A DNA stretch of 48,253 bases, taken from a virus (lineage: Duplodnaviria > Heunggongvirae > Uroviricota > Caudoviricetes). The position numbers were made by a program, and so were the translations under genes. Of this stretch, positions 1,689 to 33,616 are shown in pieces; the stretch's first letter is position 1, and every line of letters starts with the position of its first letter. The stretch is taken from IMG/VR virus record IMGVR_UViG_2531839665_000024, one strand, 5' to 3'. The notes under the pieces were generated by a model. It searched no databases and was not told the DNA's origin. It saw nothing but the letters and a program-made list of their open reading frames with translations.

Positions 1689-1907
1689 TCACAGTCCCCA
1701 TTGTTTGTTCTTAAGTTCGATCTCCTCCTGGCAACTTGCACAAGTCCGACAACCCTGAACAGCCAGGCGTCTTCGCTCATCTATCGGATCGCCACACTCA
1801 CAACAATGAGTTGCGGATACAGTCTGGTAGTTCAGACGACGCATTTTTATTGCTGTATTGCGCTGTAATTCTTCGATTTCTGATGCCGAATCAATGATGT
1901 CTGCCAT
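1689..1907 (-). CDS. TraR/DksA-family C4 zinc-finger protein
   Basis: 72-aa ORF with CxxC-X17-CxxC (CCECGDPIDERRRLAVQGCRTCASC) typical of phage TraR-like proteins. Confidence 0.6.
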   Translation of the reverse strand: MADIIDSASEIEELQRNTAIKMRRLNYQTVSATHCCECGDPIDERRRLAVQGCRTCASCQEEIELKNKQWGL

Positions 1908-2005
1908 CTTCCATTAATCCCTGAATTGTTGGTTAATACGCTTGAGGATGAATGCGAACAATAAAAAAGGAGCCTGTAGCTCCCTGATGATTTTGCTTTT
2001 CATGT

Positions 2006-2317
2006 TCACCGTTCCTTAAAGACGCCGTTTAACATGCCGATCGCCAGGCTTAAATGAGTCGGTGTGAATCCCATCAGCGTTACCGTTTCGCGGTGCTTCT
2101 TCAGTACGCTACGGCAAATGTCATCGACGTTTTTATCCGGAAACTGCTGTCTGGCTTTTTTGATTTCAGAATTAGCCTGACGGGCAATGCTGCGAAGGGC
2201 GTTTTCCTGCTGAGGTGTCATTGAACAAGTCCCATGTCGGCAAGCATAAGCACACAGAATATGAAGCCCGCTGCCAGAAAAATGCATTCCGTGGTTGTCA
2301 TACCTGGTCTCTCTCAT
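2006..2317 (-). CDS. Hypothetical early-left protein (true start may be an internal Met)
   Basis: 103-aa ORF co-oriented in the operon between exo and xis. Confidence 0.3.
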   Translation of the reverse strand: MRETRYDNHGMHFSGSGLHILCAYACRHGTCSMTPQQENALRSIARQANSEIKKARQQFPDKNVDDICRSVLKKHRETVTLMGFTPTHLSLAIGMLNGVFKER

Positions 2318-2489
2318 CTGCTTCTGCTTTCGCCACCATCATTTCCAGCTTTTGTGAAAGGGATGCGGCTAACGTATGAAATTCTTCGTCTGTTTCTACT
2401 GGTATTGGCACAAACCTGACTCCAATTTGAGCGAGGCTATGTGCCATCTCGATACTCGTTCTTAACTCAACGGGAGATGCTTTGTGCAT
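2298..2489 (-). CDS. Hypothetical small protein
   Basis: 63-aa ORF, co-oriented, acidic. Confidence 0.25.
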   Translation of the reverse strand: MHKASPVELRTSIEMAHSLAQIGVRFVPIPVETDEEFHTLAASLSQKLEMMVAKAEADERDQV

Positions 2490-2650
2490 ACAGCTCCCCG
2501 TTTATTATTTATCTCCTCAGCCAGCCGCTGTGCTTTCAGGGGATTTCGGATAACAGAAAGGCCGGGAAATACCCAGCCTCGCTTCGTAACGGAGTAGACG
2601 AAAGTGATCGTGCCTACGCGGATATTATCGTGAGGATGTTTCATCGCCAT
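2462..2650 (-). CDS. Hypothetical small protein immediately downstream of exo
   Basis: 62-aa ORF whose start overlaps the exo stop region (coupled arrangement). Confidence 0.3.
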
Positions 2651-3321
2651 TGCTCCCCAAATACAAAACCAATTTCAGCCAGTGCCTCGTCCATTTTTTC
2701 GATGAACTCCGGCACCATCTCGTCAAAACTCGCTATATACTTTTCATTCCGCTCAATCACGACATAATGCAGGCCTTCACGCTTCATACGCGGGTCATAG
2801 TTGGCAAAGTACCAGGCATCTTTTCGCGTCACCCACATGCTGTACTGCACCTGGGCCATGTAAGCCGACTTTATGGCCTCGAAACCACCGAGCCGGAATT
2901 TCATGAAATCCCGGGAGGTAAACGGGCATTTCAGCTCAAGGCCATTGCCGTCACTGCATAAACCATCGGGAGAGCAGGCGGTGCGCATACTTTCGTCGCG
3001 ATAGATGATCGGGGATTCAATAACATTTACGCCGGAAGTGAACTCAAACAGGGTTCTGGCGTCGTTCTCGTACTGTTTTCCCCAGGCCAGCGCTTTAGCG
3101 TTAACTTCCGGAGCCACACCGGTGCAAACCTCAGCCAGCAGGGTGTGGAAGTAGGACATTTTCATGTCAGGCCACTTCTTTCCTGATCGGGGCTTTGCTA
3201 TCACGTTGTGAACTTCTGAAGCGGTGATGACGCCGAGCCGTAATTTGTGCCATGCATCATCCCCCTGTTCGACAGCTCTCACGTCGATCCCGGTACGCTG
3301 CAGGATAATGTCCGGTGTCAT
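2641..3321 (-). CDS. exo: Lambda-type 5'-3' exonuclease (Red alpha)
   Basis: 226-aa translation matches my recollection of lambda Exo nearly end to end ([40 protein letters not shown]...). Confidence 0.95.
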
Positions 3322-4103
3322 GCTGCCACCTTCTGCTCAGTGGCTTTCTGTTTCAGGAATCCAAGAGCTTTCACTGCTTCGGCCTGTGTCAGTTCTGACG
3401 ATGCGCGAATGTCGCGGCGAAATATCTGGGAACAGAGCGGCAATAAGTCGTCATCCCATGTTTTATCCAGGGCTATCAGCAGAGTGTTAATCTCCTGCAT
3501 GGTTTCATCGTTAACCGGAGTGATGTCGCGTTCTGGCTGACGTTCTGCAGTGTATGCAGTATTTTCGACAATGCGCTCGGCTTCATCCTTGTCATAGATA
3601 CCAGCAAATCCGAAGGCCAGACGGGCACACTGAATCATGGCTTTATGCCGTAACATCCGTTTGGGATGCGACTGCCACGGCCCCGTGATTTCCCTGCCTT
3701 CGCGAGTTTTGAATGGTTCGCGGCGGCATTCATCCATCCATTCGGTAACGCAGATCGGATGATTACGGTCCTTGCGGTAAATCCGGCATGTACAGGATTC
3801 ATTGTCCTGCTCAAAGTCCATGCCATCAAACTGCTGGTTTTCATTGATGATGCGGGACCAGCCATCAACGCCCACCACCGGAACGATGCCGTTCTGCTTA
3901 TCAGGGAAGGCGTAAATTTCTTTCGTCCACGGATTAAGGCCGTACTGGTTGGCGACGATCAACAATGCGATGAACTGCGCATCGCTGGCATCACCTTTAA
4001 ATGCCGTCTGGCGAAGAGTGGTGATCAGTTCCTGTGGGTCGACAGAATCCATGCCGACACGTTCAGCCAGCTTCCCTGCCAGCGTTGCGAGTGCTGTACT
4101 CAT
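3318..4103 (-). CDS. bet: Lambda-type single-strand annealing protein (Red beta)
   Basis: 261-aa translation matches lambda Bet ([66 protein letters not shown]...); start overlaps exo stop. Confidence 0.95.
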
Positions 4104-4108
4104 CCGTT

Positions 4109-4405
4109 TTATACCTCTGAATCAATATCAACCTGGTGGTGAGCAATGGTTTCAACCATGTACCGGATGTGTTCTGCCATGCGCTCCTGAAACTCAACAT
4201 CGTCATCAAACGCACGGGTAATGGCTTTTTTGCTGGCCCCGTGGCGTTGCAAATGATCGATGCATAGCGATTCAAACAGGTGCTGGGGCAGGCCTTTTTC
4301 CATGTCGTCTGCCAGTTCTGCCTCTTTCTCTTCACGGGCGATCTGCTGGTAGTGACGCGCCCAGCTCTGAGCCTCAAGACGATCCTGAATGTAATAAGCG
4401 TTCAT
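4109..4405 (-). CDS. gam: Gam, RecBCD inhibitor (98-aa form)
   Basis: [21 protein letters not shown]... matches lambda Gam short form. Confidence 0.9.
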
Positions 4406-4480
4406 GGCTGAACTCCTGAAAATGGCTGTGAAAAAATCGCCCGCGGAATGCCAGGCTGATTCGGAAAACAGGAAAGGGGA

Positions 4481-4771
4481 TTAGTGATTCAGACCGTTGC
4501 CGCGTCCGTCGAGAAAAACTTCCACGAGCAAGTCACGGGTATAAGTGCGCTCAATGCCGCGATGCAGATAAAGTCGTCCGCGTAAATTAGCTGATGCAGT
4601 CCAGGTACCATCTTTGCGTTTGACCAGCATTCCTAGCATGACCGCACCGCGATTAACGGTCTGCGTTCCGTAATGTTGATGAACCATAAAAACTCCTGCC
4701 CGTAAGCTGGGCTGCTGAACATATAAAGACTTCTGCGCGTATTCAGGCGGTGGATGGCCGCCGGTTGTCAT
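4481..4771 (-). CDS. Hypothetical protein in the kil/cIII position of the early-left operon
   Basis: 96-aa ORF (possibly 68 aa from internal Met); does not resemble lambda Kil or CIII as far as I can recall. Confidence 0.35.
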   Translation of the reverse strand: MTTGGHPPPEYAQKSLYVQQPSLRAGVFMVHQHYGTQTVNRGAVMLGMLVKRKDGTWTASANLRGRLYLHRGIERTYTRDLLVEVFLDGRGNGLNH

Positions 4772-4964
4772 AACTAAGCCGCCTCGTTGAAGCGACTAAG
4801 GTATGAAATGTTGAGTTGATTTCAGCTGGTCACACCGACGTTCACGCGTCCGTTTCATCCCTCGCACTCCCCGAAGCCTGCTGAAATTCAAGCTGCGGAT
4901 CTAAGCGGTCATCGCAACGGTGAATCAGGTGGTTGCCGTATCGTTGTGTTGTTGCGATATGGTG

Positions 4965-5010
4965 ATAATAGCTATTGCTATTGGTGATATCAATACTTAT
5001 TGCTATTAGT
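4965..5010. promoter_or_regulatory. Putative OL operator region (repeated TTGCTATT motifs, AATAGCTATT palindrome)
   Basis: TTGCTATT at 4975-4982 and 5000-5007 plus palindrome 4967-4976; the same 8-mer recurs twice in the cI-cro intergenic region. Confidence 0.35.
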
Positions 5011-5127
5011 TGATGTGTTTTGATATTAAATGTTTGATAGCAAAAAGAATTAATTTTGTGACTTGCATCGCATAGCGATAACTGAAGTGAGGTCGTGGTG
5101 GTTTTTTGAACGGTGTGTGATGAGGGG

Positions 5128-5161
5128 AGGGCAAAAGAAAACCCGGCACGGTGGCCGGGTT
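5128..5161 (-). terminator. Rho-independent terminator closing the cI-distal operon
   Basis: Minus-strand hairpin CCCGGC-N6-GCCGGG (plus 5142-5159) followed by a U-run (TTTTCTTTTG), immediately after the stop of the 149-aa membrane protein gene. Confidence 0.55.
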
Positions 5162-5609
5162 ATTGTTCTTGATTGATCTTATCGAAGATATCATGACTTA
5201 ATTTTTGCACATTTAGGAAATTTACTATGAAGAAGACAATTGCGTAAATTATTAATGTGAAAAAAAGTATTGAAGGAGAGAATTTTAGTATCAGGGATTT
5301 AAATTCAAAGCTGAACTCATACTCTTTTAAATATTCACTAAGCACAAGGCATAAAGTAGAAAGAGTGAAAAAGCGCAAAAAAGAATTTCGTATAGATACC
5401 AATTCTTTTCTGATAACTTTAACATAATTAATGTTTTTAATGCCAGACATGTTAAAAGTTACAATCAACCCTAACCCGATAGAAAACATTATGCCACAGA
5501 CAGAATACAATGTAGAAATCAAAAACTGATCAGGCCTCCAAGCTAAAAATGATGGAAGCCCGATAGTAATTATCAGAACAATTAGCAAGCTAGCTATTTG
5601 TCGCTTCAT
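5160..5609 (-). CDS. Small integral membrane protein, about four predicted TM helices (RexB-position, RexB-like topology)
   Basis: 149-aa ORF in about 30 percent GC DNA; hydrophobic segments IASLLIVLIITIGLPSFLAW, ISTLYSVCGIMFSIGLGLIVTF, FLRFFTLSTLCLVL, ILFFTLIIYAIVFFIVNFL; start overlaps the upstream gene by 20 nt. Confidence 0.6.
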   Translation of the reverse strand: MKRQIASLLIVLIITIGLPSFLAWRPDQFLISTLYSVCGIMFSIGLGLIVTFNMSGIKNINYVKVIRKELVSIRNSFLRFFTLSTLCLVLSEYLKEYEFSFEFKSLILKFSPSILFFTLIIYAIVFFIVNFLNVQKLSHDIFDKINQEQ

Positions 5610-6615
5610 TTTCTATCTCTTTTAAATATCTGCTCATTTCTTGAAATACCTCTTGTTCTACAAGCTTGCCTGAATCAGTAACCTCAATTGTTACATTTTT
5701 AATCTTAAGAAGATCTTTGCCTTTTATTTCTGAGCGACCATCACTTCGTTTGAATACAATGTTATCAAGATCACTAACAGGTTTTAATGTTGCACTTAAT
5801 AGTTTAGCATAACTATCTTCATCCATGCTCCTTGGTTTACTAAACTTTATCAACAGTTCAGCTGATACTATTTGATTGTCAATTATTTCTTTTAGATTTG
5901 GGAAATTTGGTACAGCTGATTTCAATGCATTTAAAACAGCGTGTGAAAGTTTTATTTTTGTATTTTTTTCTTCAATTTCTGATGGTGGCGATTTCATATC
6001 GGATGACTGAACCAATACTTCTTTTGGAAGAGGAGATGGATCTCTCACAGAAATTGATTTTATATCCTTAAGCTGAACTTTATTACCTTTAACAATCATC
6101 GGTGTGAATTCAATCATTTCATTCCCAACCAGCCAGCGTATATAAGTTTGTAGAGATGATATAGTCCTATTCATCTGCAGATTGGTAACTAAATAATTAT
6201 CACTTATACAGAAGTAGAAATGGTTTTTGCATACGACCTCTGTATCAATGTCAGCATTATGGAGATCACTAATTGTAAATGATTTTTTGTTAAAAAGTTG
6301 ATCGGGAATCTTTTCAACTCCCTCGCTTGGGGCAATTCTAACCATTGTACAAAAAACAGAATTACTGTTGTCTGATGTCTGATAGAACGATATCAAATCT
6401 TGTTCTTGCCTAAGATCGTCAGAGTTTAAAACCATGCAACGTTCTTTTACGGTAGATGAGTCAACTAGCTTTTGTAATAAAAGCTTTTTCGCGGGGCTAG
6501 ATTTTTCTGTTAGATTATTGTTTTCTATCTTAAAAGCTCTTAATTTCACTTGTTTAGGTTTATTATGTTTTTTATTTACAGAGCTGCTATTTTCACTATT
6601 CATAGAATCAACCAT
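5590..6615 (-). CDS. Uncharacterised 341-aa soluble protein (RexA-position); candidate sensor/effector of a phage-exclusion system
   Basis: 1026-nt ORF in AT-rich DNA (a long ORF is statistically unlikely by chance in AT-rich sequence); directly downstream of cI on the same strand; no recognisable family. Confidence 0.6.
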   Translation of the reverse strand: MVDSMNSENSSSVNKKHNKPKQVKLRAFKIENNNLTEKSSPAKKLLLQKLVDSSTVKERCMVLNSDDLRQEQDLISFYQTSDNSNSVFCTMVRIAPSEGVEKIPDQLFNKKSFTISDLHNADIDTEVVCKNHFYFCISDNYLVTNLQMNRTISSLQTYIRWLVGNEMIEFTPMIVKGNKVQLKDIKSISVRDPSPLPKEVLVQSSDMKSPPSEIEEKNTKIKLSHAVLNALKSAVPNFPNLKEIIDNQIVSAELLIKFSKPRSMDEDSYAKLLSATLKPVSDLDNIVFKRSDGRSEIKGKDLLKIKNVTIEVTDSGKLVEQEVFQEMSRYLKEIENEATNS

Positions 6616-6708
6616 TGATTATGTGTAGTTTTATAATGTAGTAAGCATCAAGTATTTTTATAATTTGAGTTTGGTTTATCACACAAACATTTAAACCAAC
6701 TTGCTAAG

Positions 6709-7437
6709 TCATCCATGCTTTCTGTATGTCTGCGGCATGCTCCCAATAACTTTCCCGAAGATAAACACCCGGTTCATCTCGTCTTTCTCGATCGGGTCCC
6801 ACGGTGAGTAGCTCTTGTTATCAGAGATAACCAGCAGCTTATCCTTCATCATTTGCAGGCGCTTTACATGGGCTGTGTCGTCATACAGAAACGCATAGAT
6901 ACCATCACCGTCGAAAGATTTAACCGTGATATCAACGAACAGAAGATCACCTGGTTCGATCGTTCCTGACATGCTGTCACCACGCACGTTAATGATGCGG
7001 ATATTTTCCGCCTTCCTGCCATCGAACATGTGACGAGCATCGTCAAACGAGTACTCAACCGAGCGTAGAACTTCTACAAACTCACGGTTGATTACACCCG
7101 GCCCGGCACTGACTTCTATATCAAGAACGTCAATCTTGAAGTATTTTGAATGGCTGACAGCAGGCTTCCCTGATTGTTGACCGTCATTTCTCATCGGGCC
7201 TATGCCTGATGAGAGCCATTCTGTTCGAACACCCAATGCATTAGCTATTTCAACAATTTTTGTTGAGCCGCGCGCGTTGCCGCTTGTCAGTCTCCAGATT
7301 GTGGGTTGAGCTACGCCAGACGCCTTTGCAAGAGCGCCTTGAGACATTCCAGATTGTTCCATCGCTAGGTTTAAGCGATCAGCAAGAGTTTCTTTTTTCA
7401 TAAGTTTTAATTTATACGCTTGCGTATTGATGGTCAA
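6709..7437 (-). CDS. cI: CI-like prophage repressor with N-terminal HTH and C-terminal S24 (LexA-like) autopeptidase domain
   Basis: HTH (MSQGALAKASGVAQPTIWRL), Ala-Gly cleavage-site candidate (VSAGPG), GDSM serine and downstream lysine of S24 fold; annotated ORF begins at TTG, true start could be the internal ATG 36 nt downstream. Confidence 0.85.
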   Translation of the reverse strand: MTINTQAYKLKLMKKETLADRLNLAMEQSGMSQGALAKASGVAQPTIWRLTSGNARGSTKIVEIANALGVRTEWLSSGIGPMRNDGQQSGKPAVSHSKYFKIDVLDIEVSAGPGVINREFVEVLRSVEYSFDDARHMFDGRKAENIRIINVRGDSMSGTIEPGDLLFVDITVKSFDGDGIYAFLYDDTAHVKRLQMMKDKLLVISDNKSYSPWDPIEKDEMNRVFIFGKVIGSMPQTYRKHG

Positions 7438-7511
7438 AACACGTTTTGCTATTGCTTTGATTAATACGCATTGCTATTATTCATTCATTGCAATACCAAT
7501 AGGAATTGATA
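7438..7511. promoter_or_regulatory. Putative OR operator/divergent promoter region between cI and cro
   Basis: TTGCTATT at 7446-7453 and 7471-7478, palindrome ATTGCAAT at 7487-7494; divergent gene arrangement. Confidence 0.45.
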
Positions 7512-7739
7512 ATGACAAATCAAACCATTCAACTCGCAATCAGTATTACAGGTAGTCAAAAACGACTGGCAGATCTATGCGGTGTAGCCCAACCCACAGT
7601 TTGGCGTTGGCTACACGGTGGCGGAATTGATGCCCGCTATGTAATGAAAATTGTCTCAGCCACTGGTGGAAAGATTAAACCAGCAGATATTCGTCCCGAC
7701 CTCGCACCATTGTTTAACGCGAGTAATTCTGCCGCCTAA
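7512..7739 (+). CDS. cro: Cro-like HTH regulator (YdaS-like)
   Basis: 75-aa ORF from ATG with AGGA SD; HTH QKRLADLCGVAQPTVWRW; divergent from cI. Confidence 0.75.
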   Translation: MTNQTIQLAISITGSQKRLADLCGVAQPTVWRWLHGGGIDARYVMKIVSATGGKIKPADIRPDLAPLFNASNSAA

Positions 7740-7763
7740 ACTGCGGCGTTAACTGATAAGGCA

Positions 7764-8309
7764 ATGACTATGCAACCACTTACATACCAACAGACTAGCG
7801 GATTTAGCCCGACTGCGGTGATAAATCGTTCTCAAATAAAACAAGCTCCAGACCACGAAAAAATCCGTGATGCCGTCCGCGCCTGGTCGGCTGTAGATAA
7901 TCAGGATGTCGTTGCCGCACTCATTGTGAATGAGTATCGGGAGCAGGGCGACGGCACCATCGATTTCCCTGATGATGTCAGCCGTGCACGCCAGAAGCTG
8001 TTCCGCTTCCTCGATAACAAATTCGATTCTGAAAAATACCGAAATAACGTGCGTGAACTGACCCCGGCAATTCTGGCGGTACTACCGCTGGAATATCGCG
8101 GTTACCTGGTTGAGCAGGATAGCTTCATGACTCGGCTGGCTGAAATGGAAAAGGAACTCAGTGAGGCAAAACAGGCTGTCATTCTCAACGCACCACGCCA
8201 CCAGAAACTGAAGGAAATTAGTGAAGGTATTGTGTCGATGTTTCGTGTGGACCCGGATCTGGCTGGTCCATTGATGGCGATGGTTACCACCATGTTGGGG
8301 GCAATATGA
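7764..8309 (+). CDS. YdaT-like protein in the cII position
   Basis: 181-aa ORF directly after cro with SD AAGG; family assignment from memory only. Confidence 0.45.
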   Translation: MTMQPLTYQQTSGFSPTAVINRSQIKQAPDHEKIRDAVRAWSAVDNQDVVAALIVNEYREQGDGTIDFPDDVSRARQKLFRFLDNKFDSEKYRNNVRELTPAILAVLPLEYRGYLVEQDSFMTRLAEMEKELSEAKQAVILNAPRHQKLKEISEGIVSMFRVDPDLAGPLMAMVTTMLGAI

Positions 8310-9325
8310 CAGGCTCAGAAATGGCGAAAGCCGGTCTGCGGGAACAGAGCCGACTTTCAGGTGCAAATCGTAACGCACTCATTGCGGGAGGAATTATGGC
8401 AAACACTGCTGAGATATTCAATTTTCCAGTGCCGGATGTGGCACAAAAGGAGCCGCGCGTGGCAGATCTCGATGATGGTTATACGCGCATTGCAAATGAG
8501 TTGCTGGAAGCTGTGATGCTGGCCGGATTAACACAGCACCAGCTTCTGGTCTTTCTGGCTGTCATGCGCAAAACATATGGCTTTAATAAAAAACTGGATT
8601 GGGTTAGCAACGAGCAACTTTCCGAATTAACCGGGATATTGCCGCACAAGTGTTCTGCTGCAAAAAGTGTTCTGGTAAAGCGTGGGATTTTTATTCAGAG
8701 CGGGCGGAATACCGGCATTAATAATGTGGTCAGTGAATGGTCAACATTACCCGAATCAGGTAAGAAAAATAAAGTTTACCTGAAAGAGGTAAATTTACCT
8801 GAATCAGGTAAAAAAAGTTTACCCAAATCAGGTAAAGGCGTTTACCCGAATCAGGTAAACACAAAAGACAAACTAACAAAAGACAATATAAAACCTTTTT
8901 CGTCCGAGAATTCTGGCGAATCCTCTGACCAACCAGAAAACGATCTTCCTGTGGTGAAACCGGATGCTGCAATTCAGAGCGGCAGCAAGTGGGGGACAGC
9001 AGAAGACCTGACCGCCGCAGAGTGGATGTTTGACATGGTGAAGACCATCGCGCCATCAGCCAGAAAACCGAATTTTGCAGGGTGGGCTAACGATATCCGC
9101 CTGATGCGTGAACGTGACGGACGTAACCACCGCGACATGTGCGTGCTGTTCCGCTGGGCATGCCAGGACAACTTCTGGTCCGGTAACGTGCTAAGTCCGG
9201 CCAAACTCCGCGACAAGTGGACCCAACTCGAAATCAACCGTAACAAGCAACAGGCAGGCGTGACAGCTAGCAAACCAAAACTCGACCTGACAAACACAGA
9301 CTGGATTTACGGGGTGGATCTATGA
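8306..9325 (+). CDS. O: Replication initiator O (lambda-type C-terminal P-interaction domain, distinct N-terminal DNA-binding domain)
   Basis: C-terminal about 110 aa match lambda O (ARKPNFAGWANDIRLMRERDGRNHRDMCVLFRWACQDNFWSGNVLSPAKLRDKW...); iterons embedded in coding sequence. Confidence 0.85.
   Translation: MTGSEMAKAGLREQSRLSGANRNALIAGGIMANTAEIFNFPVPDVAQKEPRVADLDDGYTRIANELLEAVMLAGLTQHQLLVFLAVMRKTYGFNKKLDWVSNEQLSELTGILPHKCSAAKSVLVKRGIFIQSGRNTGINNVVSEWSTLPESGKKNKVYLKEVNLPESGKKSLPKSGKGVYPNQVNTKDKLTKDNIKPFSSENSGESSDQPENDLPVVKPDAAIQSGSKWGTAEDLTAAEWMFDMVKTIAPSARKPNFAGWANDIRLMRERDGRNHRDMCVLFRWACQDNFWSGNVLSPAKLRDKWTQLEINRNKQQAGVTASKPKLDLTNTDWIYGVDL
8746..8859. repeat. Replication origin iterons (five about 19-bp near-palindromic repeats TTTACCYGAATCAGGTAAA) followed by an A/T-rich region to about 8900
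   Basis: Repeats at 8746, 8775 (degenerate), 8794, 8818, 8841 with about 24-bp periodicity inside the O gene, as in lambda ori. Confidence 0.75.
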
Positions 9326-10389: not shown

Positions 10390-10722
10390 ATGAACCCTTA
10401 TATTTATCTTGGTGGTGCAATACTTGCAGAGGTCATTGGTACAACCTTAATGAAGTTTTCAGAAGGTTTTACACGGTTATGGCCATCTGTTGGTACAATT
10501 ATTTGTTATTGTGCATCATTCTGGTTATTAGCTCAGACGCTGGCTTATATTCCTACAGGGATTGCTTATGCTATCTGGTCAGGAGTCGGTATTGTCCTGA
10601 TTAGCTTACTGTCATGGGGATTTTTCGGCCAACGGCTGGACCTGCCAGCCATTATAGGCATGATGTTGATTTGTGCCGGTGTGTTGGTTATTAATTTATT
10701 GTCACGAAGCACACCACATTAA
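10390..10722 (+). CDS. emrE: EmrE small multidrug resistance (SMR) efflux transporter
   Basis: 110-aa four-TM protein MNPYIYLGGAILAEVIGTTLMKFSEGFTRLWPSVG... with conserved Glu14; matches E. coli EmrE, a known DLP12 cargo gene. Confidence 0.9.
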   Translation: MNPYIYLGGAILAEVIGTTLMKFSEGFTRLWPSVGTIICYCASFWLLAQTLAYIPTGIAYAIWSGVGIVLISLLSWGFFGQRLDLPAIIGMMLICAGVLVINLLSRSTPH

Positions 10723-10752
10723 AATAATTTGTTTCTAAACGACTAAAATATG

Positions 10753-10793
10753 GAGGCTCTTATATTTATATGAGCCTCGTTTTATGCTTTTTG
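10753..10793 (+). terminator. Rho-independent terminator downstream of emrE
   Basis: Hairpin GAGGCTC-N12-GAGCCTC followed by a T-rich tract (GTTTTATGCTTTTTG). Confidence 0.6.
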
Positions 10794-12701: not shown

Positions 12702-12751
12702 AAAATACGTGACAAATTATTATGAGCAAAATGGTGTATGTCACGTATTTT
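12702..12751. promoter_or_regulatory. Perfect 13-bp inverted repeat (AAAATACGTGACA ... TGTCACGTATTTT) upstream of ybcL
   Basis: Arms at 12702-12714 and 12739-12751 with 24-nt spacer; function unknown. Confidence 0.3.
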
Positions 12752-14326: not shown

Positions 14327-14390
14327 AAGTGTTTTAAGAAGGAGCAATTCTATCGATTTTGATTTTGGGAAATCAACACGGCATAATTAT

Positions 14391-31532: not shown

Positions 31533-31886
31533 GTGGCTGATTCCGATAACCTGTTCGATGCTGCCATTGCCCGCGCCGATGAAACGATACGCGGGTACAT
31601 GGGAACGTCAGCCACCATGACATCCGGTGAGCTGTCCGGTGCTGTGATACGTGGTGTTTTTGATGACCCTGAAAATATCAGCTATGCCGGACAGGGGGTG
31701 CGCGTTGAAGGCTCCAGCCCGTCCCTGTTTGTCCGGACTGATGATGTGCGGCAGCTGCGGCGTGGAGACACACTGACCATCGGCGAGGAAAACTTCTGGG
31801 TGGACCGGATTTCGCCGGATGATGGCGGAAGCTGTCATCTCTGGCTTGGGCGTGGCGTGCCGCCTGCCGTTAACCGTCGCCGCTGA
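31533..31886 (+). CDS. FII: Head completion protein FII
   Basis: 117-aa translation (GTG start) matches lambda FII. Confidence 0.9.
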   Translation: MADSDNLFDAAIARADETIRGYMGTSATMTSGELSGAVIRGVFDDPENISYAGQGVRVEGSSPSLFVRTDDVRQLRRGDTLTIGEENFWVDRISPDDGGSCHLWLGRGVPPAVNRRR

Positions 31887-31897
31887 AAGGGGGATGT

Positions 31898-32476
31898 ATG
31901 GCCATAAAAGGTCTTGAGCAGGCCGTTGAAAACCTCAGCCGTATCAGCAAAACGGCGGTGCCTGGTGCCGCCGCAATGGCCATTAACCGCGTTGCGTCAT
32001 CCGCGATATCGCAGTCTGCGTCACAGGTTGCCCGTGAGACAAAGGTACGCCGGAAACTGGTAAAGGAAAGGGCCAGGCTGAAAAGGGCCACGGTCAAAAA
32101 TCCGCAGGCCAGAATCAGGGTTAACCGGGGGGATTTGCCCGTAATCAAGCTGGGTAACGCGCGGGTTGTCCTTTCCCGCCGCAGACGTCGTAAAAAGGGG
32201 CAGCGTTCATCCCTGAAAGGTGGCGGCAGCGTGCTTGTGGTGGGAAACCGTCGTATTCCCGGCGCGTTTATTCAGCAACTGAAAAATGGCCGGTGGCATG
32301 TCATGCAGCGTGTGGCCGGGAAAAACCGTTACCCCATTGATGTGGTGAAAATCCCGATGGCGGTGCCGCTGACCACGGCGTTTAAACAGAATATTGAACG
32401 GATACGGCGTGAACGTCTTCCGAAAGAGCTGGGCTATGCGCTGCAGCATCAACTGAGAATGGTAATAAAGCGATGA
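31898..32476 (+). CDS. Z: Tail completion protein Z
   Basis: 192-aa translation matches lambda Z. Confidence 0.9.
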   Translation: MAIKGLEQAVENLSRISKTAVPGAAAMAINRVASSAISQSASQVARETKVRRKLVKERARLKRATVKNPQARIRVNRGDLPVIKLGNARVVLSRRRRRKKGQRSSLKGGGSVLVVGNRRIPGAFIQQLKNGRWHVMQRVAGKNRYPIDVVKIPMAVPLTTAFKQNIERIRRERLPKELGYALQHQLRMVIKR

Positions 32477-32868
32477 AACATACTGAACTCCGTGCAGCCG
32501 TACTGGATGCACTGGAGAAGCATGACACCGGGGCGACGTTTTTTGATGGTCGCCCCGCTGTTTTTGATGAGGCGGATTTTCCGGCAGTTGCCGTTTATCT
32601 CACCGGCGCTGAATACACGGGCGAAGAGCTGGACAGCGATACATGGCAGGCGGAGCTGCATATTGAAGTTTTCCTGCCTGCTCAGGTGCCGGATTCAGAG
32701 CTGGATGCGTGGATGGAGTCCCGGATTTATCCGGTGATGAGTGATATCCCGGCACTGTCAGATTTGATCACCAGTATGGTGGCCAGCGGCTATGACTACC
32801 GGCGCGACGATGATGCGGGCCTGTGGAGTTCAGCCGATCTGACTTATGTCATTACCTATGAAATGTGA
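32473..32868 (+). CDS. U: Tail terminator protein U
   Basis: 131-aa translation matches lambda U. Confidence 0.9.
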
Positions 32869-32875
32869 GGACGCT

Positions 32876-33616
32876 ATGCCTGTACCAAATCCTGTAATGC
32901 CGGTGAAAGGTGCCGGGACCACCCTGTGGGTTTATAAGGGAAGCGGTGACCCTTATGCGAATCCGCTTTCAGACGTTGACTGGTCGCGTCTGGCAAAAGT
33001 TAAAGACCTGACGCCCGGCGAACTGACCGCTGAGTCCTATGACGACAGCTATCTCGATGATGAAGATGCAGACTGGACTGCGACCGGGCAGGGGCAGAAA
33101 TCTGCCGGAGATACCAGCTTCACGCTGGCGTGGATGCCCGGAGAGCAGGGGCAGCAGGCGCTGCTGGCGTGGTTTAATGAAGGGGATACCCGAGCCTATA
33201 AAATCCGCTTCCCGAACGGCACGGTCGATGTGTTCCGCGGCTGGGTCAGCAGTATCGGTAAGGCGGTGACGGCGAAGGAAGTGATCACCCGCACGGTGAA
33301 AGTCACCAACGTGGGCCGTCCGTCGATGGCAGAAGATCGCAGCACGGTGACGGCGACAACCGGCATGACTGTGACGCCTGCCAGCACCTCGGTGGTGAAA
33401 GGGCAGAGCACCACGCTGACCGTGGCATTCCAGCCGGAAGGCGCAACCGACAAGAGCTTCCGTGCGGTGTCTGCGGATAAAACAAAAGCCACCGTGTCGG
33501 TCAGTGGTATGACCATCACCGTGAAAGGTGTTGCTGCAGGCAAGGTCAACATTCCGGTCGTATCCGGTAATGGTGAACTTGCTGCGGTTGCAGAAATCAC
33601 CGTCACCGCCAGTTAA
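32876..33616 (+). CDS. V: Major tail tube protein V
   Basis: [36 protein letters not shown]... matches lambda V. Confidence 0.95.

Follow-up and report, generated by a model that had tools for sequence, protein, structure and literature searches.

Which signal, if any, stands in for N in a lambdoid prophage whose early-left genes are lambda's own? The question is posed by the pL leader of a viral DNA of 48,253 nucleotides (Caudoviricetes; IMG/VR record IMGVR_UViG_2531839665_000024), hereafter the window. The slot immediately downstream of pL is the one used by N and nutL in lambda, and an earlier note on this DNA had reported neither an N-like ORF nor lambda-like boxA or boxB motifs there, offering N-independent transcription, an RNA element resembling HK022 put or a non-homologous factor in explanation.

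A lambda-derived early-left operon and its terminators

Across the window the genes are arranged as in an intact DLP12-type lambdoid prophage. The minus strand carries the early-left genes int (1-1164), exo, bet, gam (4109-4405) and kil (4481-4687), then two genes in the rex position (5160-6615) and cI (6709-7437), whilst the plus strand carries cro (7512-7739), a YdaT-type 'cII' gene (7764-8309), O, P and ren, and also emrE, ybcK-ybcN, ninE, rusA and a phage-82-type Q. Over the stretch tested, identity to Escherichia phage PhiR68_2 is 99.9%, and the Bievrevirus phages 4A7, 4C10, Perceval and others are ~95% identical; relatives of the PhiR68_2 and 4A7 types are inducible and have been isolated as phages. 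Positions 1712-4487 are 97% identical to lambda 30,418-33,193 (orf61 through gam), terminator-like hairpins included, and this homology stops inside lambda kil, beyond which the window encodes a different Kil (PHROG 294).

Read leftward from pL, the first hairpin held in common with lambda is a weak terminator-like stem-loop with a U tract in the gap between kil and gam (4456-4439, minus strand; dG -8.5), homologous to lambda ~33,141-33,166 and presumably equivalent to the tL2 cluster. Directly 3' of exo, a strong hairpin followed by UUCUGUU (2580-2558, minus strand; dG -14.3) is identical to lambda ~31,264-31,286; we take it to be tL3, which is in use as a terminator in vectors. Upstream of a TraR-like gene, xis and int lies a further terminator-like hairpin followed by UUUUUAUU (1985-1967, minus strand), again identical in lambda. 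Only the weak hairpin stands between pL and exo in the family of this window, and this family also lacks the intrinsic terminator found ahead of the kil module in most other phages, so the recombination genes are probably reachable without help. This arrangement favours the plainest account of the locus, namely that the operon is N-independent, that no processive antitermination takes place and that the leader is no more than a 5' UTR of the ordinary kind, its conserved parts serving RNA stability or the translational control of kil. We consider this account the main rival of the reading proposed below and somewhat less likely, in part because the lambda hairpins at 2580-2558 and 1985-1967 lie between pL and xis/int and yet the phages are inducible.

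The early-left promoter and the absence of N and nut

We assigned pL to 4993-4965 on the minus strand, with a -35 box TTGATA (4993-4988), a 17-nt spacer, a -10 box TATTAT (4970-4965) and a predicted start at the A at 4958; no other sigma-70-like promoter was found between 4300 and 5300. Pattern searching located an OL operator at 4967-4982, a perfect AATAGC-N4-GCTATT palindrome that is overlapped by pL and is the only perfect one in the whole window, and a copy with two mismatches at 4992-5007, with related sites clustering at OR (7438-7507). The position previously proposed for pL and OL is thereby upheld. Directly upstream of OL/pL, the operon of cI and the rex-slot genes ends in an intrinsic terminator (5161-5140, minus strand; 8-bp stem with six GC pairs, U tract, dG -13.7). 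A promoter is kept at identical spacing in three immunity types (the window and two other operator/promoter sequences), and in relatives of other immunity types homology to the window starts at the predicted +1 (4958) or at +35.

Between 4958 and 4771 the sole minus-strand ORF comprises 31 aa from a TTG, or 20 aa from an ATG at 4858, and it matched nothing in Pfam or PHROG; lambda N, used as a positive control, matched PF11438 at 2.5e-26. A boxA (YGCUCUUWA, up to one mismatch) was found neither on the minus strand from 4687 to 4958 nor on the plus strand near cro (7440-8400), and a scan of the window for boxB-like hairpins, which recovered nutL and nutR from lambda, returned none. The gap between cro and cII is ~24 nt and thus has no room for a nutR at the lambda position. 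The window accordingly shares the slot and the downstream operon with lambda but differs in lacking the N ORF, boxA, boxB and space for nutR, as the earlier note had described for N and for boxA/boxB. Nor did the leader contain an ops element (GGCGGTAG, up to one mismatch), and an Rfam 15 scan of 4300-8400 with E-values up to 10 gave nothing within 4687-4958, its sole matches being weak terminator look-alikes at 5131-5239. Among these, a sub-threshold isrJ match on the minus strand (5138-5201) scored 29.1 bits, short of the gathering score of 37; it falls on the terminator of the cI operon and is most likely itself a terminator look-alike.

The pL leaders of phi80/HK225 type provide a second comparison, since they belong to the same early-left module family as the window, with the same kil hairpin and upstream ORF, and have their first ~45 nt in common with certain leaders discussed below (L099 type; L numbers designate individual loci). 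They differ in having a CUGCUUUUUAACAA-type boxA together with long downstream leaders or an annotated N, whereas the leader of the window has no boxA, including the rrn-like form (UGCUCUUUAACAA). We observed an rrn-like boxA (CUGCUUUUUAACAA or CUGCUCAUUAACAA) after a 5' hairpin in phi80 (L005; 1060-1100), L111 (10860-10880) and L015 (4245-4262), and several boxA-bearing pL leaders have a second block, AGCUCUUUGCGAGGGGCUGACGG, shortly 5' of the first gene. Judged by these motifs, the boxA-bearing pL leaders of this phage group may constitute another, Nus-factor-dependent type.

The leader is not an HK022-type put RNA

The put RNAs of HK022 act in cis, binding the zinc-binding domain of the RNA polymerase beta-prime subunit and suppressing termination without protein factors, and the family is a key model for a nascent RNA that reprogrammes RNA polymerase. 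To our knowledge, protein-free, RNA-mediated processive antitermination in phages is represented by essentially this one family. A covariance model (R1) was built from an alignment of eight sequences, putL from HK022, phiEt88, UPF_BP1, CobraSix, S9-5, HK639 and PdC23 together with HK022 putR, and was searched with filters off. As a control, the model found the putR sequences of UPF_BP1 and phiEt88, on which it had not been trained, at 55-57 bits, and it identified putL or put in 23 loci. The same search over the whole window, including the leader for which the earlier note had suggested it, produced a best score of 10.6 bits, outside the leader, and nothing within the leader. An HK022-type put is thereby excluded, whilst the broader notion of an RNA-based element gained support from a conserved, structured element that we found in the putL slot and designate B.

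A conserved RNA element in the pL leader

Element B occupies 4819-4913 on the minus strand (~95 nt, +46 to +140 of the pL transcript). A second covariance model, R2, matched the window once (4810-4918; 122.9 bits) and detected exactly one copy of B in each of 64 loci. Sensitive BLAST across all fetched loci picked out L099, in which leader positions 46-139 have a homologue of 82% identity preceded by another 5' segment; B was then found in 19 viral contigs by a pattern scan from which the type of the window had been left out, and in three more by a metagenome scan. RNAalifold applied to nine representatives predicted two adjacent irregular stem-loops. In the window the predicted paired core (4907-4824) consists of helix 1 (4907-4905 with 4865-4863) enclosing P2 (4898-4871), and of helix 3 (4862-4857 with 4830-4824) enclosing P3 (4853-4834).

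Partial support for this two-domain fold came from 25 distinct sequences, in an alignment that was itself fitted to the model. Four pairs showed compensatory changes, which derive from two or three lineages (A-U to C-G and G-C to A-U in P2, A-U to G-C at two pairs in P3), and 99.5% of pair cells held standard pairs, as against 25-39% when the partners were slid by one to three columns. Helices 1 and 3 are uninformative in this respect because they are invariant. A competing or pseudoknotted long-range pairing of UUUCAGCAGG with CCAGCUGAAA is also possible, both strings being invariant. The folding energy of B was no better than that of shuffled sequences (z from +0.3 to -1.3), a measure that is uninformative here because real put RNAs also lie near zero.

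The commonest type of lambda-like prophage in E. coli carries B. Positions 4790-4958 matched 2,210 of 5,426 complete E. coli genomes (~40%), nearly all at 90-100% identity and nine at 80-90%, and no gene was annotated at the leader in the matching genomes. The leader is also present in 16 GenBank phages, and B occurs in relatives that are absent from the 5,426 genomes. Two exact 20-mers of the leader gave no matches, or only chance ones, among species-representative genomes; these strings are specific to the type of the window, so this negative says little about other hosts. B had no match in Rfam 15, and its sequence strings were not found in the searchable literature. Over 25 collinear loci, with the start of kil taken as 4687, nucleotide diversity was 0.026 in the leader, compared with 0.04-0.06 for third codon positions and for the spacer between kil and gam.

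Exchange of B with putL and a possible role in antitermination

The context of B changes on both sides. Homology begins at about +46 whichever of three 5' segments and promoters precedes it, and what follows may be the kil hairpin (the window), a boxA-like block with an HNH gene (L099) or a tiny ORF with a long leader (L141 and L142). Since B is kept with such unrelated downstream contexts, it is not the translational operator of one gene, and this also counts against the N-independent account with which we began, in which the leader could be tied to kil. In leaders of the L099 and L142 types, the -10 region and the first ~60 nt are common to CobraSix and HK639 (100% and 96% identity over 47 nt), and after this shared 5' leader there is one junction, followed by putL in CobraSix and HK639 and by B in L099 and L142. 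Lambdoid phages usually exchange functional equivalents by module swaps at a fixed junction. Put was found in 23 loci, B in 64 and both together in none, a pattern that the N-independent account does not readily accommodate.

B and the put RNAs (HK022, HK639, CobraSix, phiEt88 and others) are alike in lying in the pL leader of an N-less lambdoid phage, in taking the slot that follows one and the same 5' leader segment, in being of about equal size, in their similar layout of two stem-loops (predicted in the case of B) and in their unexceptional thermodynamic stability. They differ in that B has no sequence or covariance-model similarity to put and contains none of the invariant put blocks GAACGGC, GUCGG, GGCGGG and CAAU; having failed the match to the put profile, B is not a member of that family. 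A further difference concerns copy number, as HK022 has a second copy, putR, downstream of pR, whereas every B locus is single-copy: neither short-word BLAST nor model R2 revealed the leader a second time, whether near pR or at any other place, and model R2 found no B-like element in the right operon. CobraSix, whose cro/YdaT-like layout matches that of the window, has putL and no putR within 3 kb to the right of pR, so a missing right-hand copy is not fatal to an antiterminator role for B.

Taken together, the independence of B from its neighbours, its place in the putL slot, its mutual exclusion with put and the presence of terminators to overcome suggest that B concerns transcription elongation. 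Our best reading, advanced tentatively from comparative sequence data and placed ahead of plain N-independence, is that B may represent a second, independent class of cis-acting phage antiterminator RNA, equivalent to put in function and unrelated to it in sequence and fold. On this proposal, transcription from pL would produce an untranslated leader in which B, at about +46 to +140, folds into its two adjacent irregular stem-loops and works in cis, like a put RNA, on the polymerase from which it has just emerged. The polymerase would thereby become resistant to the lambda-derived terminators at 4456-4439, 2580-2558 and 1985-1967, and gam-bet-exo, followed by xis-int, would be expressed after induction. 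That B binds polymerase and suppresses termination is postulated by analogy with put; if it does so, its kind would be that of cis-acting leader RNAs replacing N in lambdoid phages.

Several observations weigh against this proposal and are shared by the N-independent account as points in its favour, alongside the absence of N, nut and put: there is no strong terminator between pL and exo in the family of the window, fold energies do not exceed those of shuffles, and the constraint on the leader is only about twofold, third codon positions and the spacer between kil and gam being roughly twice as diverse. The narrow lineage base of the covariation is a further weakness of the antiterminator proposal. 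No partner element exists on the pR side either, where the emrE terminator (10752-10779) and another candidate near 12748 lie on the way to Q. Relatives of the window nevertheless present B with strong intrinsic terminators between it and kil (7627-7611 and 6734-6717 in L099, 5945-5928 in L141), in the absence of both an N-like ORF and put, which counts against unaided transcription.

If the antiterminator proposal is correct, RNA-mediated antitermination has evolved more than once, B offers a new RNA-polymerase interface for study, and the early programme of very common E. coli prophages (Bievrevirus, intact DLP12-type) is explained without N. Even if B is no antiterminator, the analysis defines a widespread RNA element new to Rfam 15 and to the literature that could be searched, a start-codon-occluding hairpin ahead of kil and a group of phages that keep lambda terminators without the lambda antiterminator.

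As separate observations on the right operon, the emrE moron (10390-10779, plus strand), flanked by ren and ybcK on the stretch that leads from pR to Q, includes its strong intrinsic terminator at its end (10752-10779; dG -12), and we noted another candidate terminator near 12748 and a promoter-like site ahead of ybcN (14359-14387).

Arginine-rich reading frames in the leader

The ATG at 4858 opens an Arg-rich mini-ORF (MKRTRERRCDQLKSTQHFIP; 4858-4796, minus strand) inside B, whose peptide (MKRTRERRCDQLK...) resembles the RNA-binding motif of N. This ATG is a minority allele, most relatives having GTG, and the common G at 4858 re-forms a G-C pair predicted for helix 3, which the A of the window breaks. 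At the same place, leaders of the L099 type read GUG UAA, and in other relatives a 5-nt indel shifts the frame. On these grounds, and with no match in Pfam or PHROG, we judged the mini-ORF not to be a gene and rejected it both as a remnant of N and as a peptide gene.

A related possibility is that a nutL-N region was deleted and that the leader is what is left of it, the mini-ORF representing the remains of the N RNA-binding motif, without present function. A 33-nt stretch does resemble a part of the lambda pL leader that lies equally far from +1 (75-108 here, 77-108 in lambda), and by eye KRTRERR resembles TRRRERR of lambda N. The former resemblance was equalled by five of 500 shuffles, and we rejected homology to the lambda pL leader as a marginal match confined to those 33 nt. 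The two resemblances also conflict, as the lambda-like stretch is non-coding in lambda, 120 nt before the N ATG; the mini-ORF is not conserved, the leader was found with an intact N in none of the 5,426 genomes or the phage collection, and the region has compensatory changes and is to some degree constrained. We therefore consider this origin very improbable.

B could instead be a nut-like landing site at which polymerase is modified by a factor acting in trans, be it supplied by the host, a very short Arg-rich peptide or some phage protein with no relation to N. Two leader types have Arg-rich mini-ORFs, that of the window and one in L141 (MPVKQRERQKRTGYKRR), and recognition could take place at conserved blocks that are single-stranded, UUGAAUUUCAGCAG and GGGGAGUGCGAGGG among them. 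Against this, neither mini-ORF is conserved, no match to the N family was obtained, the first genes after B differ by lineage (kil, an HNH gene, a zinc-ribbon protein or an acidic protein) and the window lacks a boxA for Nus factors. B is not a nut site, and we think the involvement of such a factor unlikely, preferring the cis-acting antiterminator proposal. The L141 frame is a 17-codon Arg/Lys-rich ORF with a Shine-Dalgarno sequence (6436-6383, minus strand), ~170 nt 3' of B in leaders of the L142 type, and recalls the mini-ORF of the window without being conserved across types.

The exchangeable 5' segment

The first 45 nt of the leader (4958-4914, minus strand) are exchangeable among relatives and begin with a terminal hairpin in which AUCG (4958-4955) pairs with CGAU (4943-4940) around a CA-rich loop. 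The string CAACAACACAAC (4954-4943, minus strand) in this loop is a perfect 12-nt complement of the seed of the host sRNA GcvB, and neither strand of the window has another 12-mer of this kind. It raises the possibility that on induction the 5' end of the pL transcript serves as a sponge for GcvB, in the manner of the prophage anti-sRNA AgvB, which would be compatible with any role of B. AgvB and AsxR are short, Hfq-bound prophage anti-sRNAs of 51-60 nt whose genes occupy the pR' moron site and which share a conserved 3' module, ~42 nt long (Tree et al. 2014, PMC4104026). The window shares with them the kind of sequence, a prophage-encoded RNA with a CA-rich 5' stretch resembling GcvB targets, but that sequence forms the 5' end of the pL mRNA rather than an sRNA at pR', and we rejected the leader as an AgvB-type anti-sRNA on account of this location.

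A sponge at pL also seems improbable to us for other reasons: CAACAACACAAC and the GcvB seed are both of low complexity, the duplex energy is equalled by 2.5% of 60-nt windows, pL is repressed in lysogens, and the segment is replaced by unrelated sequences in relatives of the O157 type (L122) and the L099 type. The complementarity is real and, by these comparisons, statistically modest. L111 and L015 have comparable hairpins with a CA loop, and CAACAACACAAC could be a by-product of the CA-rich loop that the window shares with such leaders.

The kil module

Beyond B lies a second structured element, a hairpin at 4805-4769 (minus strand) in which CAUA (4805-4802) pairs with UAUG and buries the AUG at 4771-4769. 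Seven of its 14 pairs showed compensatory changes in an alignment of 29 variants (A2), in which CAUA was invariant, and its fold z-score was -3.39. The hairpin belongs to the kil module and not to B. In most other phages it is preceded by a strong intrinsic terminator and then by TTTTTCATACC, and we found the module of hairpin and upstream ORF in more than 120 viral contigs, usually straight after an intrinsic terminator.

The ORF at 4771, which the earlier note had taken as the first leftward gene, does exist (4771-4481, minus strand; MTTGGHPPP..., PHROG 294 (Kil), 1.8e-35), but the true gene start lies further downstream, as this frame begins with a small, conserved upstream ORF (4771-4688) that in the window is fused in frame to kil. 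A good Shine-Dalgarno sequence precedes the ATG at 4687, and the pattern of diversity over codon positions fits coding from 4687, which places kil proper at 4687-4481. In phi80 and HK225 the upstream ORF is a separate frame of 21 codons, and it contains a polyproline run. By their arrangement, the hairpin and upstream ORF look like a translational control device for a toxic Kil; in the scheme proposed above, the hairpin would be a device separate from B, masking the AUG with which the small upstream ORF begins. Elsewhere in the early-left region of phi80-like phages (L005, L006, L099 and L141), CATTTCTCCCGCATCAGCGGGTAACGACAGAGGGTAAGG recurs at several intergenic sites, 5' of successive genes, and may be a conserved element that marks a boundary or acts as a linker.

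Genes in the rex position

At the position of rexB/rexA, 3' of cI, the window encodes on its minus strand a 149-aa membrane protein (5160-5609) and a 341-aa protein (5590-6615), neither of which had a match in PADLOC, Pfam or PHROG. Phage 4A7 has another pair in this slot, an ASCH-domain protein and an uncharacterised protein. Such gene pairs are candidates for a prophage-encoded exclusion system.
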